This document shows, one piece after another, positions 3,777 through 31,487 of a DNA stretch of 32,000 bases (positions are counted from its first letter, which is position 1; each line of letters opens with the position of its first letter). The notes under the pieces were generated by a model. The model was given only the letters and a program-made list of their open reading frames with translations, was not told the origin of the DNA and ran no database searches. The position numbers and the translations under genes are program-made. This DNA comes from Candidatus Saccharimonadota bacterium (GTDB lineage Bacteria > Bacteroidota > Bacteroidia > Cytophagales > Amoebophilaceae), in NCBI RefSeq assembly GCF_936981045.1, contig NZ_OW441264.1:90001-122000 (forward strand). The letters are read 5' to 3'.

Positions 3777-3806
3777 TTGCAAATTATAAAAAAGTATGTA
3801 CCTTTG
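3777..3806 (+). promoter_or_regulatory. candidate Bacteroidota sigma-A promoter upstream of the 16S rRNA gene
   Basis: aTTG (3776-3779), 19 nt, then TAccTTTG (3799-3806). This matches the published Bacteroides consensus TTTG-N19-21-TAnnTTTG and lies about 185 nt upstream of the mature 16S 5' end. A 9-bp hairpin plus T-run sits just upstream (3739-3761). Motif match only. Confidence 0.3.
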
Positions 3807-3990
3807 TACCAGAGTTGATCAGGATGAGTTAGTAGCCAAGTAGAAGGTAAACAAGCTGGTTCTGGTTTAGCTTTAGTTCTTTGAAATGGATGTAGGTAAG
3901 AAGCTCATTAAGTATGAGTGAGAGGGAAGTGTGTGACTCAAGAAAAATCATTCCTAGTTTTATGATTAGGGATAACGTTAATAAATAATA

Positions 3991-5513
<1,523 letters not shown>

Positions 5514-5783
5514 TTATAGAGTGAGTGCTATCCCTCTCTTCTTACCGCATTTGTTTTAAATGTTGTTTGCGCGCTCTTTAAAGGTTTTTAATATCTTGTG
5601 CCTTTTTATCTTTCTATTTTTATTCTAGTAGTTGAAAGCTAGGTAATAAATATGGCTATGTTTTTAATTAACCTAAAATTAGCTACAACAGAAAGTTTAA
5701 ACCAATATTCCATATGTTTAGATGGATATAATAGATAATAATTTCATTTTCAATAATGAAGGTTATTTTTATCTAGAAGGATA

Positions 5784-6142
5784 ACCATCAAAGCATGCAT
5801 TATACAAAAGTATACGTTACGCTTAACGCTTAGGGCGTTGATCGTACAAGAAGGTAAGCTCCTTTTAGTAAGTAATGATGGGCATTTTTGGTCTACGCCA
5901 GTAGTAAAAATTACCCACACAAAGTAGAGGTGTATTTTACAGCCAGCATCAAGTCTGATATTATCCCTAAAGATTGGTCAGACAAAGATGGTAGCGTTCA
6001 ATATTTTAGGTTTTTTTCATTTAAGGAGCTAAAGCGTATGGATGCTGTTGCACCTAATTTCCTAAAAGAAGGTAAATGGCTTAAAACTAATGTTGAAAGC
6101 GTATACGAACGGAGTGCAGTAAGTTGCCCTTTTCCGAAATAA
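5784..6142 (+). pseudogene. NUDIX hydrolase remnant (Nudix box missing, no start codon)
   Basis: The frame from 5784 reads ...LRALIVQEGKLLLVSNDGHFWSTP and then hits a stop where GG-x5-E-x7-REUxEExGU is expected. A different frame (ORF 5888-6142) carries a NUDIX-like C-terminus (VEVYFTASI...YFRFFSFKELKRMD..PNFL). Confidence 0.5.
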
Positions 6143-6221
6143 AATTGTATTCGTTAAGACAGTACCCTCAAGGAAAAATATCAATGATCATTGCAGTGTA
6201 GCTATGTGTGCCCTTTTAGTA

Positions 6222-6502
6222 TTGTGGCAATGTTATGAAAAAACAGAAAAACCGTCCCTTGTAAAAAGTTGCGGTGAGCAAGCAGACTTTACGGTTGATC
6301 AGAAAGACAGCATGCTTGAAGCCCGCGCAGCGGGCAAGTTCTGTTCTTCCAGCTGTAAGGTTTTGATTTTTTGCACACCTTTTTTATTAAGAAAAAGGTG
6401 TGCAAAAAATTCTTTTTTTACTACTAGCCTGAACAGATACCTTCTGTTTTCCCCCGTGTGCTTTCAGTAACTTTTTACAAGGGACGGTTTTTCTGTTTTT
6501 TA
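6222..6502. repeat. hairpin-type MITE (MITE-B), copy 1
   Basis: Terminal inverted repeats are AAAAAACAGAAAAACCGTCCCTTGTAAAAAGTT (about 6236-6270) and AACTTTTTACAAGGGACGGTTTTTCTGTTTTTT (about 6469-6501). The same ends and 5' flank (TTGTGGCAATGTTATG) recur at 21928-22088. The interior is largely self-complementary. Confidence 0.7.
6366..6419 (+). terminator. perfect long stem-loop followed by a T-run, inside MITE-B copy 1
   Basis: TTTTTTGCACACCTTTTT (loop TATTAAG) AAAAAGGTGTGCAAAAAA, followed by TTCTTTTTTTA. This has the geometry of an intrinsic terminator. No expressed gene obviously needs it. Confidence 0.3.
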
Positions 6503-6936: not shown

Positions 6937-7589
6937 CTATTCAATTCTGTTTTCAAATTTAATTAAAAAATGTGCCATAGTCTCGCTCCAGTTATGAATA
7001 GAGGTGGTCCATTTTCTAGTCATGTAGTTAATAGTTAGATATAATGTTTTAAAAACAGCTAGATCGTTAGGGAACACTTTTTTATTTTTGGTAACTCTAC
7101 GAAATTGGCTATTTACAGATTCCAAACATTTGTTGTGTAAATGACCTTACGTATGGCATTAGGGTACTGTAAAAATACCATCAGATTATCCCAGTTAGCA
7201 TACCAAGATTGGGCTATTTGTGGGTATTGTTGATTCCACTTAGTAGCAAAAGCTTCTAAGGCCATCAATGCTTCTTGCTCGGTAACTGCTGTATAAATTG
7301 GTTTTAAATCAGCAACTAATACCTTTCTATGTTTATAAGAAACATACTGCAAACTACCCCTAATTGCATGAACAATACAGAGCTGATGTTCTGTTTTTGG
7401 GTATACAGCAGCAATGGCCTCAGACATGCCTGACAAATTATCTGTACATGCAATGAGCATATCGTTCATACCCCGATTTTTGAGTTCTGTTAAATTGCCT
7501 AACCAAAATTTAGCCCCTTCATTTTCACTCATCCAAAGCCCTAAAACATCCTTTATGCCAGATCTATCTATACCTAAAGCAACATAGAC
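6937..7589 (-). pseudogene. IS256-family (Mutator-type) transposase, 5'-truncated and frameshifted
   Basis: ORFs 7113-7532 and 6937-7125 together read VYVALGIDRSGIKDVLGLWMSENEGAKFW...CIVH...IYTTN / ESVNSQFRRVTK..FPND. These are classic IS256 motifs, interrupted by a -1 shift near 7120. The frame stays open up to 7589, where the IS6 copy cuts it. The IS terminus GGCTCTGTCCACTTAAGTGTGTA is at 6903-6925. Confidence 0.85.
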
Positions 7590-11793: not shown

Positions 11794-11908
11794 TCTATGT
11801 TTTTATGGTTGTAATTGTTTTTTACAATGCTAATGGTTCCATTTTTTCAAAATTTTTTCTTGCTATTGTTAGCTATTTATTAAATGAATGCTAGACTTTC
11901 TTGGTTAT

Positions 11909-12073
11909 TTAAAGAAGCATGGATGCAAATAGCAGTAAGAAAGCAATAAATAGCATGATAAACTTATACCCAGCAAGTAGGGGTATTGCTACAATGCCCG
12001 CATGCATGCCTATAGAGAGCAGGGCAATAAGCACTGCTGAAAATCTTGCAATATTTTTCATATTACCTTTCAT
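11909..12073 (-). CDS. small hydrophobic protein (54 aa), copy 1 of tandem pair
   Basis: My translation is MKGNMKNIARFSAVLIALLSIGMHAGIVAIPLLAGYKFIMLFIAFLLLFASMLL. It is too short for the ORF track. The frame is preserved in both duplicate units. An alternative start is at 12061. Confidence 0.35.
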   Translation of the reverse strand: MKGNMKNIARFSAVLIALLSIGMHAGIVAIPLLAGYKFIMLFIAFLLLFASMLL

Positions 12074-12215
12074 ATTAATGATTTTTTTACAAAATTGACA
12101 TTCTATGTTTTATGGTTGTAATTGTTTTTTACAATGCTAATGGTTCCATTTTTTCAAAATTTTTTCTTGCTATTGCTACCTATTTAATTAAACAAATGCT
12201 AGACTTGCTTGGTTA

Positions 12216-12368
12216 TTAAAGAAATATGGATACAAACGGAAGTAAGAAGGCAATAAATAGCATGGTAAGCTTATACCCGGTAAGCATGAGTATTGCTACA
12301 ATGGCCCCATGGATGCCTATAGAGAGCAGGGCAATAAGCACTGCTGAAAATCTTGCAATGGCTTTCAT
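12216..12368 (-). CDS. small hydrophobic protein (50 aa), copy 2 of tandem pair
   Basis: My translation is MKAIARFSAVLIALLSIGIHGAIVAILMLTGYKLTMLFIAFLLPFVSIFL. It is a paralog of the 11909-12073 ORF, and the differences between them are in-frame substitutions. Confidence 0.35.
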   Translation of the reverse strand: MKAIARFSAVLIALLSIGIHGAIVAILMLTGYKLTMLFIAFLLPFVSIFL

Positions 12369-12689
12369 ACTTCTTACAAAAATGATGCTTTCAGGCTTTA
12401 CCTAACCATTTTGTTGCATGCAAACCCAACTCAAAAAATAAGGATATTCTTGGTTGTTTGCTATTAGTGGTACTATAAAGTTGGCTTGGTTTTAGACCAA
12501 AACAAAGTTATCTGTGTTGGCGTGGCCAAAAAGCTAATATAAAAAATAAAAGACTAAAATAATGCATAACCTACAGTTAGATCTAGATAACGTCAATTCT
12601 GGATTAAACTTGTTGTAACCCAGCCATATGTATATTAGTTATAGAAGGTTTTTTCTCTTTTAGTCCATAAGCTGTAATTCCAGCTATTT

Positions 12690-12929
12690 ACGTGAGTTGG
12701 GGATTATATTATTTTTTCATTTGATAATCAATATTAATAAAAATTAATAAAATTTGTTTTATAGACAGTTAAATAGGTAGTTGAATAACAAATAATTCTG
12801 ATAATCAGTTTATTATATATGTTATATTTATAAAATTAGATATAAAAACTTGTTAAATAGGTGCAAATATTAACTAAATAATTGATATTAAATTGTTGTA
12901 AATCAGTCAAATAAATCCCGAACTCACGT
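12690..12929 (-). repeat. 240-bp MITE (MITE-A), copy 1
   Basis: Terminal inverted repeats are ACGTGAGTTGGGGAT ... ATCCCGAACTCACGT. The interior is very AT-rich and non-coding. It is an exact reverse complement of copy 2. Confidence 0.85.
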
Positions 12930-13016
12930 TATTAGATTGACTAGAAAATTAGGTATACTTCTGTATCTGGAATGTTCTATCTGGCTAATATTTTTAAGTT
13001 GATCTATAATAGTTTC

Positions 13017-13256
13017 ACGTGAGTTCGGGATTTATTTGACTGATTTACAACAATTTAATATCAATTATTTAGTTAATATTTGCACCTATTTAACAAGTTT
13101 TTATATCTAATTTTATAAATATAACATATATAATAAACTGATTATCAGAATTATTTGTTATTCAACTACCTATTTAACTGTCTATAAAACAAATTTTATT
13201 AATTTTTATTAATATTGATTATCAAATGAAAAAATAATATAATCCCCAACTCACGT
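13017..13256 (+). repeat. 240-bp MITE (MITE-A), copy 2
   Basis: ACGTGAGTTCGGGATTTATTTGACTG ... AATCCCCAACTCACGT. It is inverted relative to copy 1 and separated from it by an 87-bp unique spacer. Confidence 0.85.
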
Positions 13257-13356
13257 AAATAAGGTAATAATTTGGGCGAAATATTAAACATAATAACTAC
13301 TTTTTTAACTACAGATACTGAAATAATGATTTTTTAGAATAAACGCGACAGAAACC
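13257..13356 (-). mobile_element. left-end fragment of a sister IS6 variant (V1)
   Basis: The reverse complement reads GGTTTCTGTCGCGTTTATTCTAAAAAATCATTATTTCAGTATCTGTAGTTAAAAAAGTAGTTATTATGTTTAATATTTCGCCCAAATTATTACCTTATTT. That is the IRL plus the first codons (MFNISPKLLPY) of a diverged relative. The same variant occurs at 14903-14992 and 30195-30325. Confidence 0.75.
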
Positions 13357-14077: not shown

Positions 14078-14887
14078 ATGATGCCTCTACAAAGGATACT
14101 ATATGTTGCAAGTGAGATAGCTCCTTTTTTGGAGACTTCCCTTGTATCAAATTGTGTACGTAAGCTACCCGAAGCCATGCAAAGCAAACAGATTGACGTA
14201 CGGATTGTAGTACCTAAGTTTGGTACGATTAATGACCGTATGAATAGGCTACATGAAGTGTTACGTTTGTCAGGCTCTATTATTTCAATAAATGATACAG
14301 ATCATTACATGTCTGTAAAGGTAGGTACTATACCTAGTACACGGTTACAAGTGTATTTTGTAGATAACGATGATCTATTTGGGCGTAGAAGATCGGTTTT
14401 TGAGGACCAGAACAATAATTTTTTTGAGGACAATGACTTGCGTATGATTTTTTTCTGCACAGGTGTAATGGAAACGCTCAAAAAATTAGAATGGGAGGCA
14501 GACATTGTACATTGTCATGATTGGATAACGGGTCTTATACCTATTTTTTGGAAGAAACTTTACCAAGACCATCTGCTTTTTAGAAAAGCCAAACTGGTTT
14601 TTACCATCTATAACAATACTTTTTCGTACCATTTTCCCTGCTTGGCAGAAAAAATAGCAAAGGCAGGTATTGCCCAGGAAGATGTAGTATGGTTAACCCC
14701 TGGTGGTTTTCGCAACATCATTCAGCTTGCTATGGACTATTCTGATCTAGTATTGCGTGGCGAACCACTGGATGCAATTGAATTCGAAGATTTATTTAAG
14801 GAAAACGAGCTGCCTTGGGTTGAAAACGATGACCAATATCACGAGGGTTACTGGGCAGTCTATAACCGACTACTCTCCTCTACATAA
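14078..14887 (+). CDS. glycogen/starch-synthase-like protein (GT5 N-terminal domain only)
   Basis: 269 aa. ILYVASEIAPFLETS...KLPEAM...DVRIVVPKFG...HCHDW fits the starch-synthase catalytic-domain N-terminus. Short versions of about 270 aa are common in Bacteroidota, as I recall. Confidence 0.7.
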   Translation: MMPLQRILYVASEIAPFLETSLVSNCVRKLPEAMQSKQIDVRIVVPKFGTINDRMNRLHEVLRLSGSIISINDTDHYMSVKVGTIPSTRLQVYFVDNDDLFGRRRSVFEDQNNNFFEDNDLRMIFFCTGVMETLKKLEWEADIVHCHDWITGLIPIFWKKLYQDHLLFRKAKLVFTIYNNTFSYHFPCLAEKIAKAGIAQEDVVWLTPGGFRNIIQLAMDYSDLVLRGEPLDAIEFEDLFKENELPWVENDDQYHEGYWAVYNRLLSST

Positions 14888-14902
14888 GGCATTTCCGTTC
14901 TT

Positions 14903-14992
14903 CTGTATTTAAAAAAGTAGTTATTATGTTTAATATTTCGCCCAAATTATTACCTTATTTTAAAGGCTATTGTTCTTCAGCAGAAGTCATTC
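14903..14992 (+). mobile_element. left-end fragment of sister IS6 variant (V2; IR missing)
   Basis: CTGTATTTAAAAAAGTAGTTATTATGTTTAATATTTCGCCCAAATTATTACCTTATTTTAAAGGCTATTGTTCTTCAGCAGAAGTCATTC. It is cut at exactly the same nucleotide by an IS6 right end as V3 at 30195. Confidence 0.75.
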
Positions 14993-15825
14993 GGTTCTGT
15001 CGCGTCTATAGTTTTCTTAGTATAGGTTTTTCGTTTAAGTCAAATTTTGGATATTATGCGGCCATTAAGATAGCAAAGTTCTCAAAAGTAGAAAGATGAT
15101 TTTTAGCTCCTCTTACTTGTCCTTTTTGAATCATACGAATGTTTTCTATCCCTGAAATAGTAATGGAAGCAGAATAAAAATTCTTAAAACCCAGCATAGG
15201 TTTTATCCGTTTTTTGATAAACCTATGATCTTGTTCAACTCTATTATTCAAATATTTGTTTTGCAATATTTGAATGGTATGATCTTGATCAAGATCTGTA
15301 TTGATCGCATCAAGGGCAGCTTTATTACTACCGCTTTTGTCAATTACTACTTTCTTAGGAATATTATTTTCTGTGATCGCCTTTCGAAAAAAAGAAAGCG
15401 TTGAAGACTTGTCTCTATGATCAGATAGAAAAAAGTCAACTGTATCACCATAACGATCTATTGCTCTATATAAATAGATCTACTTCCCGTTTAGTTTAAC
15501 ATAGGTTTCATCCATTCTCCAACTACTACCAACTGGTCGTTTTCTTTTTCTTACTGCTTTATCTATCAGAGGAACAAACTTAATAACCCATCTCTGTAGC
15601 GTAAAATGATCAACTCTTGCGCCTCTCATACGCATCATCTCTTCCAAATCTCTATAGCTCAAGGAAAAACGACACTTCATGTATACAAATAACAGGATGA
15701 CTTCTGATGAAGAACAATAACCTTTAAAATATGGTAATAACTCGGGAGAAATATTAAACATAATAACTACTTTTTTAAATACCGATACTAAAATAATCAT
15801 TTTTTAGAATAAACGCGACAGAACC
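14993..15825 (-). mobile_element. IS6-family insertion sequence, full-length but decayed copy c (833 bp)
   Basis: Both IRs are present (GGTTCTGTCGCGTCTATAG at 14993, AACGCGACAGAACC ending 15825). The transposase is broken. Confidence 0.9.
15054..15800 (-). pseudogene. IS6-family transposase, inactivated
   Basis: Only ORF pieces survive (15480-15800 N-terminal, 15054-15266 C-terminal). The W codon of NGKWIY is now TAG (15480-15482 region). An S-to-F change is also present. Confidence 0.9.
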
Positions 15826-16126
15826 TCCAATGGTTACCAAATCTCGGCAAAATAATTGGGAACATTTGTCTGGTTATTTTAAGTATTCAGATCCTGTCAG
15901 AAGGCTAATTTATACCACCAATCCTATAGAAAGCTTGCATAGGCAGATTAGGAAGTTTACCAAGACAAAAGGAGCGTTTACCAGTATAAATGCTTTGTAT
16001 AAATTAGTATATTGTGCCATAAAGAAGATCGAGGATAAATGGACTATGCCGCTGCGAAACTGGGCGTTGACCATATCTCAGATAGACATCTTTTTTTCCG
16101 GTAGATTAAAAGAGACGTTGAGATGA
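15826..16126 (+). pseudogene. IS256-family transposase, C-terminal fragment (second, diverged IS256-type element)
   Basis: ...NWEHLSGYFKYSDPVRRLIYTTNPIESLHRQIRKFTKTKGAFTS...KW.. is the conserved IS256 C-terminus. Its 5' part is removed by IS6 copy c, which ends at 15825. Confidence 0.85.
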
Positions 16127-16468
16127 ACAGGAGATGTGACACAGTTTATAGAACACTTCCGAAACGACAGAACCCGGTAAGAATGTACACCATCATTACT
16201 TTTTTTTCTCTGTTATGCACCACAATATACCTTTCTGTTTTATATCTGCATCCGAACTATTTCTTAATTTTAGGAGCTCATGTTTCATAGCATTAAATAA
16301 TATGGCTATTACTGCACTATAATTTTTATCTAGTCTAAGTTGTACATTTGTAACCCTTGTTCTAGCATAATTATATTAGCAGGGGATAAATGACACATAT
16401 TCTAAAAATTTTAACTCCTCTGTTTTAAAGTTGAACAGATACCAAAAAAATCTTAATACATTGCTCTG

Positions 16469-17710
16469 ATGACAGGAGCATATTTTATAATGCAATTGCC
16501 CTATTCATTTTTAATTGTATATACTTTGAACCCAACCAACTTATATCATTATATACTACGTTTTGTTTTGTTTATTACCTGGTTGCTTCCTTGTGTAACA
16601 AAGGCTGCTGCGCAATCTAATGTTAAGTTAGCGACATTTCCAACTACAATCAATACGACTTGCCATCCCTATCCGCGCTCTATACAATTACGGTCTGGGT
16701 TAATGGTACACAACTATAATGAAAAGTCAATCATAGTCATCCCAACTACCATTGATTTAGATATTTTATATATACATTCCTTTTTTGCTAGTCAATTCCA
16801 GTCCTATCCAAGAGTTGGACTATCCTTTTTGATGCCCTATGCGCTTCAAAAAGAGCAGCCACTTAGATTCCCGAACATATGGGGTATCTCGGCTTATATA
16901 GAACTATATCAATCCCATCCTACCCTGTCTACATGGGGGAATAGAATAAGTATTGGTGCAATCAAAGATGGTACAAAGGATCAACCCCACTATAGTTTTA
17001 TAGGCATAAAAGAAATTATCTATCACTGGTTATGGGCACCATCTTGGCAACTTAACTTTGGCATAGGGTTAAATATAAATCAAGCAAACACAACTGATCC
17101 TCTTCATTCCCGCACACAGCCATTGCATAATGCAGACAATGAAAATGATGCTATAAGATTAAAATTGGCTCCTATAGCCACGATAGGGATACGATATATA
17201 ACCCATACAGAACCTTTTTTAAGACGGGGTAACCACCCGATCCATTATAGAAAACGAAAAAGCAGTAGAGTAGACTGTAGTATAGCTGGTAGCAGTAGGA
17301 GGCTAGCAGCAACCAAAGCATACTATTTGATTTTTAGGGGATCTTCATTATTCAGTTTTACTATTAATAGCCATAATGCCTTATTATGCGCCATGGAGTT
17401 AGGATACAACCGGTATAAAAAAGCTTTGTTAAACAATATGCTGCCAGCAGGCGGTATAGAGGTTACCGCATTATTGGGCTATGAAATACGCTACGGACAT
17501 TATTTGTTGCAACTACAACTAGGATATGAAATGACCGATTTAAAAAAACCTACCACACAAACTGCTAACGAGGATAGGTTATTAAGTATATTGAACAGGA
17601 AGTATCATTTTTCTATAAATGTGCAATATATGCTTACAGAACGTTTCTTTGTGGGCATCAGCGCTCGTCATCAGGAAATACCAGCGTTTCGATTGGGCGT
17701 ATCATGGTAA
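16469..17710 (+). CDS. hypothetical protein, possibly an outer-membrane beta-barrel
   Basis: 413-aa ORF with a signal-like segment ...WLLPCVTKAAAQS. Alternating hydrophobic patterns run through it, and it ends in an aromatic residue (FRLGVSW). I recognise no family. The start codon is uncertain. Confidence 0.5.
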   Translation: MTGAYFIMQLPYSFLIVYTLNPTNLYHYILRFVLFITWLLPCVTKAAAQSNVKLATFPTTINTTCHPYPRSIQLRSGLMVHNYNEKSIIVIPTTIDLDILYIHSFFASQFQSYPRVGLSFLMPYALQKEQPLRFPNIWGISAYIELYQSHPTLSTWGNRISIGAIKDGTKDQPHYSFIGIKEIIYHWLWAPSWQLNFGIGLNINQANTTDPLHSRTQPLHNADNENDAIRLKLAPIATIGIRYITHTEPFLRRGNHPIHYRKRKSSRVDCSIAGSSRRLAATKAYYLIFRGSSLFSFTINSHNALLCAMELGYNRYKKALLNNMLPAGGIEVTALLGYEIRYGHYLLQLQLGYEMTDLKKPTTQTANEDRLLSILNRKYHFSINVQYMLTERFFVGISARHQEIPAFRLGVSW

Positions 17711-18781: not shown

Positions 18782-18913
18782 CCCCATATATAACATGCAA
18801 ACAACCATCTTTCTCTATAGATAAGTGGTCATCTGTTCGTTATCCTTGTAGGAAGTTGGTCTATATGTTTGCGTCTATCCCTTTCCTTTCTAAACATAGA
18901 AAGCAACATAATA

Positions 18914-19153
18914 ACGTGAGTTTGGGATTTATTTGACTGATTTACAACAATTTAATATCAATTATTTAGTTAATATTTGCACCTATTTAACAAGTTTTTA
19001 TATCTAATTTTATAAATATAATATATATAATAAACTGATTATCAGAATTATTTGTTATTCAACTACCTATTTAACTGTCTATAAGACAAATTTTATAAAT
19101 TTTTATTAATATTGATTATCAAATGAAAAAATAATCTAATCCCGAACTCACGT
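18914..19153 (+). repeat. 240-bp MITE (MITE-A), copy 3
   Basis: ACGTGAGTTTGGGATTTATTTGACTG ... TAATCCCGAACTCACGT. It shows a few substitutions relative to copies 1/2 and ends 80 nt upstream of the typA start. Confidence 0.85.
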
Positions 19154-19233
19154 TAATACATCAACTTCTCTTTTTTAGATTAGCATTATTTAAAATACCA
19201 GTAGCCTAAAAACCCATTAAATTAAAAGATTTC

Positions 19234-21606: not shown

Positions 21607-21847
21607 ACGTGAGTTCGGGATTAGATTATTTTTTCATTTGATAATCAATATCAATGAAAATTTATAAAATTTGTTTTATTAGACGGTTAAATAGGTAGTT
21701 GAATAACAAATAATTCTGGTAATCAGTTTATTATATATATTATATTTATAAAATTAGATATAAAAATTTGTTAAATAGGTGCAAATATTAACTAAATAAT
21801 TGATATTAAATTGTTGTAAATCAGTCAAATAAATCCCGAACTCACGT
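21607..21847 (-). repeat. 240-bp MITE (MITE-A), copy 4
   Basis: ACGTGAGTTCGGGATTAGATTATTTTTTCATTTG ... AAATCCCGAACTCACGT. It begins 10 nt upstream of the cvpA start codon. Confidence 0.85.
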
Positions 21848-21927
21848 TATTAAAATCAATTTTAAAAATGGTATCTAATTAAATGTTTACCTTTAACAAA
21901 CTAGCAATCTGAATGTACCGTTCAGTC

Positions 21928-22096: not shown

Positions 22097-22929
22097 GGTT
22101 CTGTCGCGTCTATAGTTTTCTTAGTATAGGTTTTTCGTTTAAGTCAAATTTTGGATATTATGCGGCCATTAAGATAGCAAAGTTCTCAAAAGTAGAAAGA
22201 TGATTTTTAGCTCCTCTTACTTGTCCTTTTTGAATCATACGAATGTTTTCTATCCCTGAAATAGTAATGGAAGCAGAATAAAAATTCTTAAAACCCAGCA
22301 TAGGTTTTATCCGTTTTTTGATAAACCTATGATCTTGTTCAACTCTATTATTCAAATATTTGTTTTGCAATATTTGAATGGTATGATCTTGATCAAGATC
22401 TGTATTGATCGCATCAAGGGCAGCTTTATTACTACCGCTTTTGTCAATTACTACTTTCTTAGGAATATTATTTTCTGTGATCGCCTTTCGAAAAAAAGAA
22501 AGCGTTGAAGACTTGTCTCTATGCTCAGATAGAAAAAAGTCAACTGTATCACCATAACGATCTACTGCTCTATATAAATAGATCCACTTCCCGTTTAGTT
22601 TAACATAGGTTTCATCCATTCTCCAACTACTACCAACTGGTCGTTTTCTTTTTCTTACTGCTTTATCTATCAGAGGAACAAACTTAATAACCCATCTCTG
22701 TAGCGTAGAATGATCAACTCTTGCGCCTCTCATACGCATCATCTCTTCCAAATCTCTATAGCTCAAGGAAAAACGACACTTCATGTATACAAATAACAGG
22801 ATGACTTCTGATGAAGAACAATAACCTTTAAAATATGGTAATAACTCGGGAGAAATATTAAACATAATAACTACTTTTTTAAATACCGATACTAAAATAA
22901 TCATTTTTTAGAATAAACGCGACAGAACC
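22097..22929 (-). mobile_element. IS6-family insertion sequence, full-length copy d (833 bp)
   Basis: It has the same IRs and length as copy a. The transposase differs by about 1 aa (D-to-E). Confidence 0.95.
22158..22904 (-). CDS. IS6-family DDE transposase
   Basis: 248-aa intact ORF, near-identical to 7615-8361. Confidence 0.95.
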   Translation of the reverse strand: MIILVSVFKKVVIMFNISPELLPYFKGYCSSSEVILLFVYMKCRFSLSYRDLEEMMRMRGARVDHSTLQRWVIKFVPLIDKAVRKRKRPVGSSWRMDETYVKLNGKWIYLYRAVDRYGDTVDFFLSEHRDKSSTLSFFRKAITENNIPKKVVIDKSGSNKAALDAINTDLDQDHTIQILQNKYLNNRVEQDHRFIKKRIKPMLGFKNFYSASITISGIENIRMIQKGQVRGAKNHLSTFENFAILMAA

Positions 22930-23161: not shown

Positions 23162-26100
23162 CTACGCAGGCATCCAAAATAAAATAATTGCTTCTTGCAT
23201 CCAAGGTAATTTAATGCTGGTTATAGACCAAGGAGGCACTAAATCACCTGTATCGTGTTCCTGGTGCATAATCGTTAGATGCCAAAATTTGCTTTCGGTA
23301 GCATCATTAGCTTTCTGTCTAGTTAAAATACCTAGTCTGTTCAAGAAATAACTTTTTAATATATCTTGCGTAGTACAACCTTGATATGAAGCCATTGCTT
23401 TAAGCTTTGTTAAACTTTTCCAGCGCTTTATTACTTTTTTAATCAGTAGTTGGCTGTTGACAGCTATAACTTCCATTGCACTATTGGATATAGATCCACT
23501 TTCTTCTATTTTTTCTGTAGATGCCTGTTGAGACGGTTGTTCTGGCTCAGCTATCATTTCTTTCATTGCTTCTTGACGATATGCATCGCAACCTTCATTT
23601 ATAGGTCTATAGGGTAACAATACTTCATCATAGGATAATCCACAAAGTAGCTTGGGAAGAGTAAGCTGCCATTCTGGACTCTTTAGCTGGCCAGTAACTA
23701 AGTATTGTAAGAGATAAACCGCATTATGGGCTGCTTGGTCACAGAAAAATTGGTTACCAACCATAAGGTTGTGCACTTTAAAAAAATCGTATAAGAAAGG
23801 CCATAGAAAGACCAATCCAGTATTTTTAGTATAGACCCGGACCTCTTCTTCTGGTAGACTAACTTTTGGGGATGGTTCTTTTTGCTTGGTTACCGATACC
23901 GTTTCTAATGAATGATTGGCCAAAGCTGGCTGACTCATGGTAGGTGGGTTGATGTGCTTTATAAGGGGCTTAAGCAAGGTTATAATCTTATCTTCTTCTT
24001 GATTAATGGCTTTTGTAGCCACAATTGAAGTAATGATTTTGTAAATCGCTTCTTTGGGATAACAAGTGGTCAATACTGTGCTGTGTACAAACTCCGTTGC
24101 TTCAAATGGCTTTTTTGTAATCAAATAATATATAATGGAAATGTATAATGCCCTATTCCAGGTTGATGGGTGATAGAGTGGTACAGTTTCGTGTTGCAGT
24201 GGATTGCTTAACAGATCCAGGTAATGCGTTACAAATCGAGCGTTGTCCTTTGCCAAAGAGGCTATAATCTTTGTAGTAACTTCTTGGCTAAAGTAGTGCA
24301 CCATACGTCTGGCTACTAATTGATGATTGTCCTGCGCTTCTAAAAAATTTGCTAATGTAGATGGTTGGTCCGCCATAAACTGAACCAATGCATTGCCTAA
24401 TGTAGGCATCGATAGATGGTACTGCTGGACACAAAGAGATAGGGTACCATTAAGCAGTAGATACAGCTTGGTTAGAATAGGTGCTTTGTAGCCACGTTGT
24501 ATAGCTTGTTGTTGGATCTCTTGTCGGTATTTTTCTTGTAATCTATTCAATGAAGTGATTAACTCTTCTGGTATCCCCTCGGTATCCAGGAGTTGAAAAG
24601 TTTCTAATAATGTAGTGGGGGTGATTTCTAAAACGTTACTCCATTCGGTGGTGATTTGTGCAAGCCAATTCTCTTTAGAAATAGATGTATGAGGTAGTGT
24701 TTTCAATACACTATCCCAAAATACATTTTTAGTACTATTGGGCTGGCCCAGTGAACCTTGTGTGGTACACCATAATTGATAACTCCCTTTTATAAAGTCT
24801 GCTAACGTTTTGCCTATTTCACTATGCCTTTGAACCAATAGCATAAGTTGCGTATGGGTAAAATGTACAATCAGCCGTTGACGCACATGTATTTTATGTT
24901 GCGCTAAGGAAAAAGTAGGAAGATGCGTGATCACATCATTCAACAAGGCTGTGCCATCTGCATAGTTCTCCAGCTTACCAGTATGCAAAAAGAGGTACCA
25001 TCCTTGTGCAACCCGTTCTCTTTTGCTTCGTACGGCATCGGTAATCTGCTTGTAGAGCGCTATGCTAATGGTTTCCTGTAATGGTTTGGCAATGGTTGGT
25101 AAGTGTTGTGCAACCAGTTGGTCAATCATTGATTGTGATAGGTCATCAGACTGTCGGACCCTATGCTTAATAGCTGGCAGTAGGTTGTTATAGTAAAGTG
25201 GCAAAAGGGCTTGGTCCAATTTTTCGTGTGTAGATAGAAAAATAAGATCCACGTCATCTATTTTATTTAGGTTTAGTGGCGCTAATTTTTCCTTGAGGAT
25301 AGAAAAGGCCTCTACTAGGTAGTAATCAGTTGCCTGTTTGGCCGCATCTATTAACTGATTACATAAGGTTGTTGGACGACATGAAGCTTGTGCGCTAAGA
25401 TGGAGTAATATGCGCTCTATATATTGTTTTTCGGGTGGCGTATGGGTGATCGCTGCTGCAATAAAAATTTCTTTGATTAAACGGATATTGGTCTGCTGCT
25501 GGGTACTCTGGAGCATTTTTGATTGTATGATCACCCTTTCTAACCCATCTAGCATCTGATTGGAAAATGGAATAAAGGCCTGTAATAGTTTAGATAAGGT
25601 GACCTCTGTGGCATGTTGCATTAACTTTTTTAAGATAGCGGCCTCTCGGCATAAAGGCGCTAATTGATCCCGTATTTGTTGGGGTGTTGCACGCCCCAAA
25701 CATTTGACTATTAAATAGGCGGGCACCAACTGATTGGGTGGTAATTCATTATAAGCAAGGAAATCTACTACATCAGATAATGGGTTTTCTTCGACTGAAA
25801 TAGGATCCCTATCCAAGTGCGCTGTGTAATACTTTGTTTGCAATGTGTCAAGTAGTTCTGCCGCTGAGTAGCCTTTTACTATATAATGATTATCTTTATT
25901 TATTGCATCGTTTTGAAATGATGCCAAACTAGAAAAGCACGCTGCTAGATGTTGATACCCTGCCTGTGTGGCCCTATCCAATAACCGATCACATAATATA
26001 TCATAAGAAAATGGCGTATAAGGCATAAGGTAGTCTACAATACGTGCTATATAGTGTCTTTCCGTAATCGGTGGATCTACAGTCGCTGCTGTAATCAACA

Positions 26101-27763
26101 TATTTTTTATCGAGTCTATATTTACCTGACATTCAGTAGTCTGAAGCAATGCAATGAGCACAGTTTCTAGTCTATCTAGAAACTTCATTGCAATCGGCAT
26201 GTGTTGTGCAAGACTACGTTCTATGATAGGCCGATGGATTGACACCTTTCTATCTGTTGCATCAGATGAGCATACAATAGGCTGGAGTGGGTTAACGATA
26301 GGTGGATGATGTAGTCCATCTTGGTAGATGGTTGTTTTGAAAGCATCTGATGGAAGGATCGCTGTGGATGCCAATGGAACCATAATGGCTTTTATAGCTA
26401 GGTTATACGTTTGAGTAGTAAGCAAGGCGGAAAGTCGTTGCTTGTTGATAAGGCTATTGGCAATATATTTTCTAAACAACGATTGAATCTCTTCAAAATA
26501 GAGCGTTTGAGCATATCCAAAGGCACAATAGGCTAAAGTAATGGCTTTAATCGCGCAAACAAGTGCGATGGCAGCATTAGTAGCAGTTGAGATCTGCATA
26601 AAATCAGAAAATATAGATACAATAGAGGGATCTATAGATTCTAAAAATGCAACAAAGAGGGTATCAGGTAAGTTTTTAGCCAGTTTTTCTCTATTTTTTT
26701 CTTCTTGAAGCCAACTTTTTACTAGAGGACCTATACCGGCTTTGTCCATTGCTATCTTAATGCCACTCATAGCTACTGATAGTTGATAGAACGCCATTGT
26801 GTTATTGCCTATTTTGTCCAATTCCTTTAATACCTTTTCCTGATTTTTAATATCCTGATACCAGAATTTTGGTGGCGTTATGAGTAAGTCACGCAACTGA
26901 AGGACTAATGCTTTTATGGTTGGGTCGTATGAGGATTTTTCCTCATTTTGTGCACAGTAAGTGTGTAACTTTTCTAGAATTTTTTCGTAGCTGGTGGAGG
27001 TTTGTATGGCTACTTGTTGGAGGAGCATACGCAACAAACCCATACGGTCTATTTTAGATCTTTGTTGGTTGATCATACCTAATAGGGTCATGGAAAGCAC
27101 CTGCTGTCCCGGTGTATACAACAAGTTGGGTAAAATCTTCGCTTGATATAACAATAACCCTGTTTCAGCTAAGATAGGCTTAAAATATTTTATAGGCTGC
27201 TTCAATAAACACGCAAGGGTATGCTCCAAGGTAGCCGGGGAAAAAATTGCAATGCAACGTTGAACGGCTTTTTCTTTTTTGGTCAGATTATACCAAAGTT
27301 GCTCTATAAGCAGAGGCGTATGGCGGAGCAACGCTAGATATATTTTTTCAATTTGTTTTTCACAACGTTCGACCATCCACCAAGCAAAATTACCTTCTGA
27401 TAGATAGTGTGCTATAGCTTGCCGTTTTGCATCTGGTAGTGGAATGACTTGATACCAAGTAGGATTATGAATTACCTTTCCAATCTGTTCTTTTAGCTTA
27501 AGCGTTAACATTTGTTCCACCTGACAGGGTAGTTGTTTGTCAAGGCTGGATAGATTGAAGCTACCTACATCTATGGCAATCTTGTCTAAATGGATGACTA
27601 CATCGTTCGGCACATATTGAGCAAAGAGTTTTGATAAAATAGGCATAATCCGTTTCCGGATAATTTTATGAATGATATGTTGGAGCATACTATTTTGACT
27701 ATGCTGATCAATAGTAACTTCAATTCGACTACGTAGAATAACATGACAGCTTGTTATAGGCAT
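23162..27763 (-). CDS. giant 1,533-aa protein; putative contractile-injection-system tape-measure protein (Afp14/Pvc14-like)
   Basis: Uninterrupted 4.6-kb ORF. The N-terminal module is ...VVIHLDKIAIDVGSFNLSSLDKQL... The C-terminal module is NTGLVFLWPFLYDFFKV...AVYLLQYLVTGQ..EWQLTLPKLLCGL...YFLNRLGIL...PPWSITSIKLPWMQEAIILFW. Both match, from memory, the conserved termini of eCIS/T6SS-iv tape-measure proteins. The middle is helical, of low conservation, and contains an internal duplication. The CDS itself is certain; the functional call is about 0.55. Confidence 0.6.
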   Translation of the reverse strand: MPITSCHVILRSRIEVTIDQHSQNSMLQHIIHKIIRKRIMPILSKLFAQYVPNDVVIHLDKIAIDVGSFNLSSLDKQLPCQVEQMLTLKLKEQIGKVIHNPTWYQVIPLPDAKRQAIAHYLSEGNFAWWMVERCEKQIEKIYLALLRHTPLLIEQLWYNLTKKEKAVQRCIAIFSPATLEHTLACLLKQPIKYFKPILAETGLLLYQAKILPNLLYTPGQQVLSMTLLGMINQQRSKIDRMGLLRMLLQQVAIQTSTSYEKILEKLHTYCAQNEEKSSYDPTIKALVLQLRDLLITPPKFWYQDIKNQEKVLKELDKIGNNTMAFYQLSVAMSGIKIAMDKAGIGPLVKSWLQEEKNREKLAKNLPDTLFVAFLESIDPSIVSIFSDFMQISTATNAAIALVCAIKAITLAYCAFGYAQTLYFEEIQSLFRKYIANSLINKQRLSALLTTQTYNLAIKAIMVPLASTAILPSDAFKTTIYQDGLHHPPIVNPLQPIVCSSDATDRKVSIHRPIIERSLAQHMPIAMKFLDRLETVLIALLQTTECQVNIDSIKNMLITAATVDPPITERHYIARIVDYLMPYTPFSYDILCDRLLDRATQAGYQHLAACFSSLASFQNDAINKDNHYIVKGYSAAELLDTLQTKYYTAHLDRDPISVEENPLSDVVDFLAYNELPPNQLVPAYLIVKCLGRATPQQIRDQLAPLCREAAILKKLMQHATEVTLSKLLQAFIPFSNQMLDGLERVIIQSKMLQSTQQQTNIRLIKEIFIAAAITHTPPEKQYIERILLHLSAQASCRPTTLCNQLIDAAKQATDYYLVEAFSILKEKLAPLNLNKIDDVDLIFLSTHEKLDQALLPLYYNNLLPAIKHRVRQSDDLSQSMIDQLVAQHLPTIAKPLQETISIALYKQITDAVRSKRERVAQGWYLFLHTGKLENYADGTALLNDVITHLPTFSLAQHKIHVRQRLIVHFTHTQLMLLVQRHSEIGKTLADFIKGSYQLWCTTQGSLGQPNSTKNVFWDSVLKTLPHTSISKENWLAQITTEWSNVLEITPTTLLETFQLLDTEGIPEELITSLNRLQEKYRQEIQQQAIQRGYKAPILTKLYLLLNGTLSLCVQQYHLSMPTLGNALVQFMADQPSTLANFLEAQDNHQLVARRMVHYFSQEVTTKIIASLAKDNARFVTHYLDLLSNPLQHETVPLYHPSTWNRALYISIIYYLITKKPFEATEFVHSTVLTTCYPKEAIYKIITSIVATKAINQEEDKIITLLKPLIKHINPPTMSQPALANHSLETVSVTKQKEPSPKVSLPEEEVRVYTKNTGLVFLWPFLYDFFKVHNLMVGNQFFCDQAAHNAVYLLQYLVTGQLKSPEWQLTLPKLLCGLSYDEVLLPYRPINEGCDAYRQEAMKEMIAEPEQPSQQASTEKIEESGSISNSAMEVIAVNSQLLIKKVIKRWKSLTKLKAMASYQGCTTQDILKSYFLNRLGILTRQKANDATESKFWHLTIMHQEHDTGDLVPPWSITSIKLPWMQEAIILFWMPA

Positions 27764-27814
27764 AACCGATTAAGTTGTGTGAGAACCCGCACACCAGTAC
27801 CCTGATGTGGGGGA

Positions 27815-28647
27815 GGTTCTGTCGCGTCTATAGTTTTCTTAGTATAGGTTTTTCGTTTAAGTCAAATTTTGGATATTATGCGGCCATTAAGATAGCAAAG
27901 TTCTCAAAAGTAGAAAGATGATTTTTAGCTCCTCTTACTTGTCCTTTTTGAATCATACGAATGTTTTCTATCCCTGAAATAGTAATGGAAGCAGAATAAA
28001 AATTCTTAAAACCCAGCATAGGTTTTATCCGTTTTTTGATAAACCTATGATCTTGTTCAACTCTATTATTCAAATATTTGTTTTGCAATATTTGAATGGT
28101 ATGATCTTGATCAAGATCTGTATTGATCGCATCAAGGGCAGCTTTATTACTACCGCTTTTGTCAATTACTACTTTCTTAGGAATATTATTTTCTGTGATC
28201 GCCTTTCGAAAAAAAGAAAGCGTTGAAGACTTGTCTCTATGCTCAGATAGAAAAAAGTCAACTGTATCACCATAACGATCTACTGCTCCATATAAATAGA
28301 TCCACTTCCCGTTTAGTTTAACATAGGTTTCATCCATTCTCCAACTACTACCAATTGGTCGTTTTCTTTTTCTTACTGCTTTATCTATCAGAGGAACAAA
28401 CTTAATAACCCATCTCTGTAGCGTAGAATGATCAACTCTTGCACCTCTCACACGCATCATCTCTTCCAAATCTCTATAGCTCAAGGAAAAACGACACTTC
28501 ATGTATACAAATAATAGGATGACTTCTGATGAAGAACAATAACCTTTAAAATATGGTAATAACTCGGGAGAAATATTAAACATAATAACTACTTTTTTAA
28601 ATACCGATACTAAAATAATCATTTTTTAGAATAAACGCGACAGAACC
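27815..28647 (-). mobile_element. IS6-family insertion sequence, full-length copy e (833 bp)
   Basis: It has the same IRs and length as the other copies. The transposase has 4 aa differences (M57V, V89I, R112G, D-to-E). Confidence 0.95.
27876..28622 (-). CDS. IS6-family DDE transposase
   Basis: 248-aa intact ORF. LYRAVD has changed to LYGAVD, next to the second catalytic Asp. Confidence 0.93.
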   Translation of the reverse strand: MIILVSVFKKVVIMFNISPELLPYFKGYCSSSEVILLFVYMKCRFSLSYRDLEEMMRVRGARVDHSTLQRWVIKFVPLIDKAVRKRKRPIGSSWRMDETYVKLNGKWIYLYGAVDRYGDTVDFFLSEHRDKSSTLSFFRKAITENNIPKKVVIDKSGSNKAALDAINTDLDQDHTIQILQNKYLNNRVEQDHRFIKKRIKPMLGFKNFYSASITISGIENIRMIQKGQVRGAKNHLSTFENFAILMAA

Positions 28648-28799: not shown

Positions 28800-29390
28800 A
28801 TGAATAAAAATTTAAACAACTATTTTTATAAACTTGGTTTATTGTTTGCCTCTACATTGTGCATGAATTTTACTAATAAACTAGTCTATTGCTCGTTAAT
28901 ATTTACTTTCTTAATGCTGATCTTAAATTGTATAGCAAAGTGTCATGGTAGCAAAAAGGCTACTATAAGTATAATTTTATGCACATCCACCAGTCTTGCC
29001 TTATTATGTAATAAGCAATATTACATTGCCGGTAAACTTATTAGGGGGCTTATACCAGCCTCTTTATGCGCCATATTGATTGCTTCATACATTGGCTTCA
29101 AACTGTTTTTAAAGCTAAAGGCGCGGTACGGTTTTACGATAAGCAACTGTATCAGTCTATACATCTCTGCACTTGTGGATCATCTTATAATGGGAATATT
29201 TTTCACCAGGATATTTCCTATCCATAAGATTTGGTTGATGATATATAAAGAAACAGCTTATACCTGTCTCTTTACAGTGGTAGTATACCTATGTTCAGTT
29301 ACAGTTTTGTATGCAAAACCGATTTATCGTAAACTTAAGAAGCATTTACATCCATTGGTCTGGTTCTGTCGCGTTTATTCTAAAAAATGA
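28800..29390 (+). CDS. polytopic membrane protein, possibly divergent VUT/YhhQ-type (queuosine-precursor transporter family); 3' end runs into an IS
   Basis: The ORF-track frame is 28650-29390 (TTG start); the first ATG with a sensible N-terminus is at 28800 (MNKNLNNYFYK). It has about 6 TM segments. The segment ...ISLYISALVDHLIMGIFFTRIF...YKETAYTCLFTVVVYLCSVTVLY...KLKK resembles the C-terminal half of YhhQ from memory. The last 9 codons (WFCRVYSKK) are IS6 IRL sequence. Confidence 0.4.
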   Translation: MNKNLNNYFYKLGLLFASTLCMNFTNKLVYCSLIFTFLMLILNCIAKCHGSKKATISIILCTSTSLALLCNKQYYIAGKLIRGLIPASLCAILIASYIGFKLFLKLKARYGFTISNCISLYISALVDHLIMGIFFTRIFPIHKIWLMIYKETAYTCLFTVVVYLCSVTVLYAKPIYRKLKKHLHPLVWFCRVYSKK

Positions 29391-30194
29391 TTATTTTAGT
29401 ATCGGTATTTAAAAAAGTAGTTATTATGTTTAATATTTCTCCCGAGTTATTACCATATTTTAAAGGTTATTGTTCTTCATTAGAAGTCATCCTATTATTT
29501 GTATACATGAAGTGTCGTTTTTCCTTGAGCTATAGAGATTTGGAAGAGATGATGCGTATGAGAGGTGCAAGAGTTGATCATTCTACGCTACAGAGATGGG
29601 TTATTAAGTTTGTTCCTCTGATAGATAAAGCAGTAAGAAAAAGAAAACGACCAATTGGTAGTAGTTGGAGAATGGATGAAACCTATGTTAAACTAAACGG
29701 GAAGTGGATCTATTTATATAGAGCAGTAGATCGTTATGGTGATACAGTTGACTTTTTTCTATCTGATCATAGAGACAAGTCTTCAACGCTTTCTTTTTTT
29801 CGCAAGGCGATCACAGAAAATAATATTCCTAAGAAAGTAGTAATTGACAAAAGCGGTAGTAATAAAGCTGCCCTTGATGCGATCAATACAGATCTTGATC
29901 AAGATCATACCATTCAAATATTTCAAAACAAATATTTGAATAATAGAGTTGAACAAGATCATAGGTTTATCAAAAAACGGATAAAACCTATGCTGGGTTT
30001 TAAGAATTTTTATTCTGCTTCCATTACTATTTCAGGGATAGAAAACATTCGTATGATTCAAAAAGGACAAGTAAGAGGAGCTAAAAATCATCTTTCTACT
30101 TTTGAGAACTTTGCTATCTTAATGGCCGCATAATATCCAAAATTTGACTTAAACGAAAAACCTATACTAAGAAAACTATAGACGCGACAGAACC
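29362..30194 (+). mobile_element. IS6-family insertion sequence, full-length copy f (833 bp)
   Basis: It has the same IRs and length as the other copies and is inverted relative to copy e. Confidence 0.95.
29387..30133 (+). CDS. IS6-family DDE transposase
   Basis: 248-aa intact ORF with 3 aa differences from copy a (S32L, V89I, L-to-F). Confidence 0.95.
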   Translation: MIILVSVFKKVVIMFNISPELLPYFKGYCSSLEVILLFVYMKCRFSLSYRDLEEMMRMRGARVDHSTLQRWVIKFVPLIDKAVRKRKRPIGSSWRMDETYVKLNGKWIYLYRAVDRYGDTVDFFLSDHRDKSSTLSFFRKAITENNIPKKVVIDKSGSNKAALDAINTDLDQDHTIQIFQNKYLNNRVEQDHRFIKKRIKPMLGFKNFYSASITISGIENIRMIQKGQVRGAKNHLSTFENFAILMAA

Positions 30195-30325
30195 GAATGA
30201 CTTCTGCTGAAGAACAATAGCCTTTAAAATAAGGTAATAATTTGGGCGAAATATTAAACATAATAACTACTTTTTCAACTGCAGATACTAAAATAATGAT
30301 TTTTTAGAATAAACGAGACAGAACC
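30195..30325 (-). mobile_element. left-end fragment of sister IS6 variant (V3, with IR)
   Basis: The reverse complement reads GGTTCTGTCTCGTTTATTCTAAAAAATCATTATTTTAGTATCTGCAGTTGAAAAAGTAGTTATTATGTTTAATATTTCGCCCAAATTATTACCTTATTTTAAAGGCTATTGTTCTTCAGCAGAAGTCATTC. Confidence 0.8.
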
Positions 30326-30869
30326 CTAATCCAGCAGATACAGCTACATCAGCTATATTAAAAACAGGAAGGCAATATACATAGTAATTGCCCCAAATGG
30401 GTACCCAACTAGGCATAACGCCAGACCAAAGATCAATATGCAGCATATCAATTACCTGACCATAAAACCACTTCATAGGGGCGTCAGCAGGTGCGTTATT
30501 CAAATATACACCATAAAAAATGCTATCTATACTATTGCCAATAGCGCCTCCTAAAACCAAGGCCCATCCGAAGATCCAAGCAGCAGGTGCATTGCTTCTT
30601 ATAGATTGAATGATATACCCCAAAATAGATAAAGAGGCCAAAGCACGGAACATAGTAATCAATAACTTGCCATACTTAAAACCCAAATGGATACTAAAAG
30701 CCATTCCAGCATTTAAAGTATAGGTAAGCTTCAAGACATTGCCCAAAAGATTAATTTGCCCATCTGTCCCCATTGCCATATGGGTGTGCACCCAAAGTTT
30801 AAACGCTTGGTCTGCCAAGATAATCAACCATACAATAGAAAAATATTTTATAAACTGCTTCATATACAC
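30288..30869 (-). CDS. lspA: lipoprotein signal peptidase (signal peptidase II), paralog 1 with IS-derived C-terminal tail
   Basis: 193 aa. It has ILADQAFKLWV, GGAIGNSIDSIFYG, VIDMLH and FNIADVAV, so the LspA Asp motifs are retained. The last ~11 codons (FCLVYSKKSLF) are encoded by the V3 IS end. Confidence 0.85.
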   Translation of the reverse strand: MYMKQFIKYFSIVWLIILADQAFKLWVHTHMAMGTDGQINLLGNVLKLTYTLNAGMAFSIHLGFKYGKLLITMFRALASLSILGYIIQSIRSNAPAAWIFGWALVLGGAIGNSIDSIFYGVYLNNAPADAPMKWFYGQVIDMLHIDLWSGVMPSWVPIWGNYYVYCLPVFNIADVAVSAGLGFCLVYSKKSLF

Positions 30870-30896: not shown

Positions 30897-31487
30897 TTAA
30901 TCCTTTTTTTTCGATAGAGCCAATGTACTAAAAGAACAAAAAACAAGCCCTAATCCGAGAAAAATAGCCAGGTCTGCTATATTGAAAATAGGTAAAATGC
31001 AGACCTCTTTTCCTCCCCAAATAGGTACCCAATGGGGCATAAGACCAGACCAAAAATCAACATAGAGCATATCAATTACCTGACCATGAAACCACTTCAT
31101 AGGCGCTATGTCGGGTGCATTATTTAAATAAACACCATAAAAAATACTATCAATGGTATTGCCCATAGCACCTCCTAAAAGCAATACCCATCCCCAAATC
31201 CAAAGCGCAGGGGATGACTGAGCCAGTGATTGAACAATATGAAGTGCAATATAAAACGAAGCAAAAAGACGCACAAAGGTGATCAATAGTTTTCCATACT
31301 TAAAGCCAAATTGCAACCCAAAAGCCATGCCATAGTTCAGAACATAGGTCAACTTAAATAGGTTGCCAAATATTTTAATCTGGTGATCTAGACCTAACTC
31401 CATATGACTATATACCCAAAGCTTGCATCCTTGATCTGCAAGAATGATCAATAACAATACTAAAATGTATTTTCCATACCGCTTCAT
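30897..31487 (-). CDS. lspA: lipoprotein signal peptidase (signal peptidase II), paralog 2
   Basis: 196 aa. It has ILADQGCKLWV, GGAMGNTIDSIFYG, VIDMLY and FNIADLAI. It is about two-thirds identical to paralog 1 by eye. Confidence 0.9.
   Translation of the reverse strand: MKRYGKYILVLLLIILADQGCKLWVYSHMELGLDHQIKIFGNLFKLTYVLNYGMAFGLQFGFKYGKLLITFVRLFASFYIALHIVQSLAQSSPALWIWGWVLLLGGAMGNTIDSIFYGVYLNNAPDIAPMKWFHGQVIDMLYVDFWSGLMPHWVPIWGGKEVCILPIFNIADLAIFLGLGLVFCSFSTLALSKKKD

Follow-up and report, generated by a model that had tools for sequence, protein, structure and literature searches.

What does a 4.6-kb gene encode that stands alone between two insertion sequence (IS) copies, and does its product still belong to a machine? 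The question is raised by a stretch of 32,000 nucleotides (positions 90,001 to 122,000 of contig NZ_OW441264.1), hereafter the window. An earlier note, made from the letters of the window alone, had read the gene as an orphan encoding the tape-measure protein of a contractile injection system (CIS). We followed up this reading by computation. The identification is correct and the biology is known. The gene is real and intact, yet it is already annotated, and the system to which it belongs has already been published for this strain.

The open reading frame (ORF) at 23162-27763 exists as described, and it lies on the minus strand, a detail absent from the earlier note. According to the ORF list and the translation, it starts with ATG and continues without interruption for 1,533 codons and a stop. 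The plus-strand frame of the same interval contains many stops. This is indeed the largest ORF of the window; the runner-up, topA, encodes 776 amino acids (aa). Eight peptides had been quoted from the translation and all are present, at aa 9, 53, 1314, 1347, 1444, 1471, 1493 and 1510. The composition is also as reported (L 13.3, I 8.6, A 7.6, T 7.0 and Q 7.0%). In an exact-sequence look-up, the protein was identical to public entry WP_250238395.1 / CAH2559647.1 from the Cardinium endosymbiont of Oedothorax gibbosus. The database name of this entry is 'contractile injection system tape measure protein' and CAH2559647.1 is encoded on a contig of 1,137,202 bp. The bacterium is Cardinium, here the endosymbiont of a spider; it is a sister lineage of Amoebophilus, and not Amoebophilus itself.

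Family membership was assessed with Pfam profile PF19268 (CIS_TMP), the accession named in the earlier note, which proved right. The profile has 463 positions and a curated gathering threshold of 27.8 bits. Against the whole protein it scored 233.2 bits (E=1e-68), a match that chance does not explain. The two ends were also scanned separately, a check proposed with the original reading. Residues 1-120 alone matched profile positions 2-86 (E=1.4e-13) and the last 233 aa alone gave E=4e-31. Hence, PF19268 hits both termini independently, which supports the tape-measure identity. A scan of the protein against NCBIfam returned no match. With the C-terminal 449 aa as query, 5,273 representative relatives were recovered. 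Seventeen orthologues, all containing PF19268, align with the protein from first to last residue and share invariant terminal motifs. Identity over the best local match is 23-69%, and 41-69% for the Cardinium orthologues recovered. Near the N-terminus, H7, I9, R11, L43, P52 and D54 are invariant in 18 homologues. At the other end, 14 C-terminal sequences have 46 invariant columns, mostly within the last 220 aa. We conclude that this is very probably the cis14/afp14-type tape-measure gene of the Cardinium type VI secretion system subtype iv (T6SSiv).

Where, then, are the other parts of the machine? Pfam scans, covering ORFs of at least about 84 aa outside known genes, found no sheath, tube, baseplate, spike or AAA+ gene in the 32 kb. 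From a related locus, the tube-initiator, VgrG, PAAR, gp25 and Afp12-like proteins served as tblastn queries against the window and gave no match. The ORFs of three Cardinium vgrG loci, used in the same way, matched IS transposases only. Hence, the earlier statement that these 32 kb hold no other CIS gene stands. Such genes are absent for 23 kb on one side of the tape-measure gene and for 4 kb on the other.

The rest of the genome does contain CIS structural genes, and their absence had been named as an outcome that would count against a tape-measure protein. A search seeded with a related VgrG found CAH2559892.1 ('type VI secretion system tip protein VgrG') of the O. gibbosus Cardinium on the same 1,137,202-bp contig. 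Among the CIS partners, the spike alone was verified directly. A search aimed at the sheath/tube module of the strain, made with the Afp7-like tube-initiator of a distant relative (a Logan contig), reached no Cardinium. Homologues of all 15 genes of the type VI-like system of phage origin in Amoebophilus are reported for this strain (PMC9997750). T6SSiv is present in every sequenced Cardinium and probably forms the columns that give the genus its name (2025 review, PMC12342168). The accessions CAH2559647 and CAH2559892 of the European Nucleotide Archive differ by 245; if, and only if, these numbers run in the order of the genes, this suggests about 245 coding sequences, or a few hundred kb, between the two.

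Tape-measure genes of extracellular contractile injection systems (eCIS) typically lie inside a contiguous cluster (PMC6899500), whereas here the gene is alone. The same layout is found in relatives. Cardinium cEper1 has 16 AFP-like genes across five genome regions (Penz et al. 2012, PMC3486910). Table S5 of that paper lists the Afp14 homologues CAHE_0118 of cEper1 and Aasi_1806 of Amoebophilus asiaticus. In locus-tag order, both are far from the sheath/tube genes (CAHE_0456-0463 and Aasi_1072-1079) and from the spike/baseplate genes (CAHE_0760-0763 and Aasi_1080-1083). The Amoebophilus homologue was not recovered in our homology searches. In Cardinium strains of Sogatella, Bemisia and Tipula, the orthologue sits among unrelated genes. 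Tape-measure gene and vgrG are about 227 kb apart in cBtQ1 (323,658-328,796 and about 555,842) and about 208 kb apart in the Tipula strain (370,104 and 160,554). In nine Cardinium/Amoebophilaceae loci, no tape-measure sequence was found closer than 10 kb to vgrG. We conclude that detachment of the tape-measure gene is a lineage trait and normal in Cardinium. The earlier note was right that the gene is physically detached. Its word 'orphan' was too strong, because a detached Afp14 homologue had been tabulated in 2012 and the protein already had its name.

A linked arrangement survives in the distant Logan-contig relative, whose tape-measure protein is 23% identical. There, the tube-initiator gene is followed by VgrG, two unrelated genes, PAAR, gp25, an 833-aa gene and, last, the tape-measure gene. 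The VgrG of this relative is closest to Amoebophilus-type sequences. Presumably, the linked order is ancestral. In the Cardinium of Nabis limbatus, VgrG, PAAR, gp25 and an 828-aa gene are followed by unrelated genes instead of the tape-measure gene. Comparison of the two orders places the break directly after the Afp12-like gene. The cluster may have been scattered in the common ancestor of Cardinium and Amoebophilus, or in each lineage separately. In the strain studied here, proliferation of the IS6-family element ISCca2 would then have put IS copies on both sides of the gene.

Two further observations concern the neighbours of such genes. Directly 3' of the tape-measure gene lies a gene for 671 aa in the Sogatella locus (14602-16617) and for 641 aa in the Bemisia locus (15263-17188). 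Identity between the products is 41-42%, and neither has a Pfam domain. As an obligate partner of the tape-measure protein this gene was rejected, having been looked for in the window and in the Tipula locus and found in neither; it could be a linked accessory factor or effector in some strains. In the Logan-contig relative, the genes between vgrG and PAAR (3286-6291, minus strand) are on the opposite strand. They encode an aminotransferase and a 483-aa leucine-rich-repeat protein, the latter a candidate effector.

Both flanks of the gene are IS elements, as had been seen from the letters, and each carries a 248-aa PF13610 transposase (E=8e-43 for a copy of the identical family). The terminal inverted repeats of the element are GGTTCTGTCGCGT. 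The two flanking copies are 833 bp long, in direct orientation and 99-100% identical, and the 4.9-kb segment that they bracket contains this gene only. Formally, such a layout equals an IS6-family pseudo-compound transposon. The gene might then have arrived by transposition, carried in a compound transposon or translocatable unit of the IS6 type (IS26-like). However, no 8-bp target-site duplication was found at the five full copies in the window or at the outer flanks of the bracketing pair. The element corresponds to ISCca2, which has 109 copies in this genome, 43 of them intact (Halter et al., PMC9769881). With 109 copies in 1.14 Mb, about one per 10 kb on average, and five or six in the window, flanking on both sides is expected by chance and needs no special cause. 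Furthermore, the gene is also detached in strains without flanking IS6 copies. Finally, the 51 bp between the start codon and the upstream IS are homologous to the proximal upstream region of the tape-measure gene in the Sogatella Cardinium. Hence, the data point to simple insertion of an IS beside a resident gene, with removal of the DNA further upstream. We rejected arrival by transposition as exceedingly improbable, since target duplications are missing and the IS is present in so many copies.

Insertion beside a resident gene could nevertheless have left a decaying relic, cut off from its operon and promoter, unexpressed and without a role in the machine. Only 51 bp separate the ATG from the end of the upstream ISCca2 copy, and we found no sigma-70-like promoter in this stretch. 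The genome is 29.6% mobile DNA and pseudogenisation is widespread (PMC9769881). However, the 4.6-kb frame is still open in a genome that readily forms pseudogenes. End-to-end alignment with orthologues is retained, as are all family-invariant terminal motifs. In other strains the orthologues are just as detached but have stayed intact, and cEper1 transcribes the whole set of 15 system genes (PMC5698495). Around the tape-measure gene, our scan for sigma-70 promoters and terminators performed no better than on shuffled sequence, and it did not model promoters of the Bacteroidota type. The IS transposase gene and the tape-measure gene are co-directional, so read-through transcription is plausible. 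As a secondary possibility, the gene may be transcribed in this strain from the upstream ISCca2 copy. Taken together, we consider a relic highly unlikely and retain the reading of a resident, intact T6SSiv gene.

Other IS sequences in the window deserve mention. The 833-bp element is present six times, five times in full and once in part, together with IS256/Mutator-type fragments. An inverted repeat of 924 nt, 99% identical, lies at 14902-15832 and 29362-30285; each arm consists of a full ISCca2 and about 90 nt that look like the beginning of a further copy. The same IS-within-IS junction is thus present twice, suggesting that a nested insertion was duplicated or recombined. In the ISCca2 copy at 14993-15832, the longest transposase ORF is 106 aa (15480-15800). 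Partial matches to the Mutator/IS256-family transposase profile PF00872 were found at 7113-7532 (minus strand) and 15830-16126 (plus strand), adjoining ISCca2 copies. These fragments are IS remnants, which agrees with reports of many inactivated IS elements in this genome.

We turned to the architecture of the protein (coordinates in the table below). Profile positions 118-245 of PF19268 are matched twice, by aa 121-277 and again within aa 1085-1384, the best Pfam stretch. Between the two terminal regions are three copies of a repeat of about 110 aa, outside the coverage of the Pfam profile. The repeat was found by windowed Smith-Waterman alignment and jackhmmer; plain BLASTP self-comparison missed it. 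The local alignment score of copy 1 was 131, compared with 30 +/- 5 for shuffles. Copy 1 is missing in most Cardinium orthologues. Four other strains have three copies, as here, and the remaining strains have two. AlphaFold2 predicted that aa 1085-1272 are all-helical (predicted local distance difference test scores, pLDDT, of 75-93), with scores below 50 for the remainder of aa 1085-1533. After the helical domain follows the C-terminal signature GLVFLWPF..LLQYLVTG..LPKLLCG..FLNRLGIL..PPW..KLPWM.

Length varies in one place. In an alignment of 18 sequences, aa 1-330 and 1001-1533 are colinear across all orthologues. The zone between these ends (reference aa 331-1000) ranges from 416 to 935 aa, and length variation is limited to this zone; total lengths are 1,255-1,800 aa. 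A second, separate duplication was noted by eye in the forms of 1,700-1,800 aa. More widely, we inspected the top 150 relatives of the C-terminal query, a sample biased to the closest relatives, in which 115 carry both terminal domains. The lengths of these 115 are bimodal, with 54 proteins of 401-852 aa and 61 of 1,001-2,091 aa; 11 have at least 1,533 aa. Hence, a length of 1,533 aa is not unusual and falls within the common long class of 1,001-2,091 aa. Compared with the many short PF19268 members, the protein has an expansion of about 1,000 aa, which includes the second copy of the profile middle and the three lineage-specific modules. Conserved ends joined by a variable spacer that grows by duplication fit the ruler logic of Afp14 and of phage tape measures.

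The centre (aa ~330-1000, with its three modules) might instead have a function of its own, for instance by being injected as an effector or by scaffolding the hexagonal arrays. It lies outside the Pfam profile and its modules are well conserved in Cardinium, with domain E-values of 1e-28 to 1e-48. In phage tails, contraction expels the tape-measure protein, which in some cases has extra activities. However, we detected no enzymatic or binding domain anywhere in the protein. Module number and the length of the centre vary freely between strains, as one would sooner expect of a spacer, and across the family long forms (1,001-2,091 aa) are common as well. A separate function of the centre is thus unlikely.

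How might such a ruler work? T6SSiv is a membrane-anchored, phage-tail-like contractile injection machine and is thought to form the 'microfilament-like' arrays of Cardinium. By homology with Afp14 and the tape measures of phages, the conserved module at the C-terminus would dock on the spike/baseplate hub, and the protein would run along the inside of the inner tube as the tube grows. Polymerisation of tube and sheath would stop once the other end of the protein is reached, so that protein length would set a uniform machine length. We infer that the protein of this strain is expressed and acts in this manner. Under the phage rule of about 0.15 nm per helical residue, 1,533 aa would give about 230 nm; the figure is arithmetic from a phage-derived value, uncalibrated for T6SSiv, and carrying the conversion over to this machine is likewise conjecture.

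Known systems provide points of comparison. The Afp14/Pvc14/Cis14 proteins belong to the same Pfam family and have the same N- and C-terminal conserved modules. Afp14 is cited in PMC6899500, after Rybakova 2015, as the tape measure that determines Afp tail length, and Table 1 of PMC6899500 lists it as the counterpart of gp29. Phage tape measures such as T4 gp29 and lambda gpH follow the same logic, in which tail length is set by a protein that spans the lumen of the tube. Compared with solved phage proteins, we found no similarity in sequence or fold. Closer at hand is the T6SSiv of Aureispira, a member of the Bacteroidota, which is membrane-anchored and has a homogeneous length of 420 +/- 8 nm (bioRxiv 10.1101/2024.01.29.577165). 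There, assembly is lost and the system is turned off when IS elements insert into cis14 (same source). Aureispira cis14 is drawn in the figure of the T6SS gene cluster (Fig. 3a), with the IS within the gene, whereas here the IS copies flank an intact gene. Relative to other Cardinium orthologues, the gene differs in encoding three internal modules and not two, as in a subset of strains, and in being bracketed by ISCca2.

Several points weigh against the view that this is a working ruler gene. The native upstream DNA is just the 51-bp stretch, in which no promoter was identified, so that expression in the strain is presumptive. The C-terminal 260 aa, the most conserved part, are predicted by AlphaFold2 with low confidence, which could mean that this tail folds only inside the assembly. 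No solved structure was related to the protein by sequence (phmmer), by profile (18 sequences) or by fold (Foldseek with the AlphaFold2 model of aa 1085-1533).

Table. Coordinates of the tape-measure gene, its parts and its neighbours within the window
Feature	Position	Strand	Evidence
Tape-measure coding sequence, 1,533 aa and stop	23162..27763	minus	ORF list, PF19268 E=1e-68, exact-sequence look-up
N-terminal conserved tape-measure module, aa 7-91, profile positions 2-86	27491..27745	minus	PF19268, invariant residues
First copy of profile middle section, aa 121-277 (PF19268 positions 118-245)	26933..27403	minus	Segment scan E=1.6e-7
Internal ~110-aa repeat, copy 1, aa 505-620	25904..26251	minus	Local alignment, jackhmmer domain table
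Internal ~110-aa repeat, copy 2, aa 719-824	25292..25609	minus	jackhmmer domain E=2.8e-39
Internal ~110-aa repeat, copy 3, aa 875-984	24812..25141	minus	jackhmmer domain E=1.4e-35
Conserved C-terminal region, aa 1085-1533	23165..24511	minus	PF19268, 5,273 relatives, AlphaFold2
Sole non-IS DNA upstream of start codon, 51 bp	27764..27814	minus	IS boundary mapping, upstream-region alignment
ISCca2-type IS6-family element directly upstream	27815..28647	minus, same as tape-measure gene	Transposase 27876-28622
ISCca2-type IS6-family element, 232 bp past tape-measure stop codon	22097..22929	minus, same as tape-measure gene	Transposase 22158-22904
Housekeeping genes: topA, ychF, ferredoxin, greA, GT5 starch-synthase-like gene, rpsT, radC			
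Further housekeeping genes: typA/bipA, cvpA, two lspA copies, 16S rRNA gene			

The remainder of the window has features of its own. A complete 16S rRNA gene is present at 3990-5515 on the plus strand (Rfam RF00177, 1,463 bits). No 23S, 5S or tRNA gene was found within the 32 kb, so the rRNA genes appear unlinked, a state common among host-restricted symbionts. Two adjacent paralogous lspA genes (signal peptidase II, PF01252) lie at 30288-30869 and 30897-31487, both on the minus strand, and encode 193 and 196 aa. The pair is 82% identical over 197 nt; in a reduced genome, one would not expect a housekeeping gene to be duplicated in tandem. The GT5 ORF (269 aa, 14078-14887, plus strand) encodes the catalytic domain only (PF08323), and IS-derived sequence begins 15 bp beyond it, at 14902. 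This ORF may have been cut by IS insertion or may be a naturally short form.

Repeats are also found between genes. A repeat of about 245 nt, 90-100% identical, occurs at 12685-12939, 13017-13261, 18904-19158 and 21657-21874, and two of the copies form an inverted pair 87 nt apart. By size and abundance it fits MITECca01, the ~240-bp miniature inverted-repeat transposable element derived from IS982 that was described for this genome (PMC9769881). Beside greA, two families of direct repeats (11801-11884 / 12108-12191 and 11909-12084 / 12216-12391) share a spacing of 307 bp, with 83-95% identity. The AT-rich intergenic DNA at 11801-12391 resembles a ~307-bp unit that was duplicated in tandem.

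As a discovery, the locus has little weight. The protein is named publicly, the system has been described for the strain and for the genus, and the scattered layout was published in 2012. The features that made the gene look like an orphan flanked by IS elements are a lineage trait and a genome-wide IS effect, and not specific to this locus. One point is mildly new. Length differences among the orthologues are limited to the spacer and driven by duplication, which predicts strain-specific array lengths. Tentatively, and judging from sequence comparison, the strains of Cardinium may make up a natural series in ruler length, generated by internal duplications in the central spacer, although we would put this at somewhat less than an even chance. 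If T6SSiv length scales with the protein, array lengths would relate as about 0.82 : 1 : 1.17 for proteins of 1,255 : 1,533 : 1,800 aa. Spacer variation across Cardinium would thus provide a cheap comparative test of T6SSiv length control. The series, if true, would amount to an in situ test of the ruler in organisms that can be neither cultured nor genetically manipulated.

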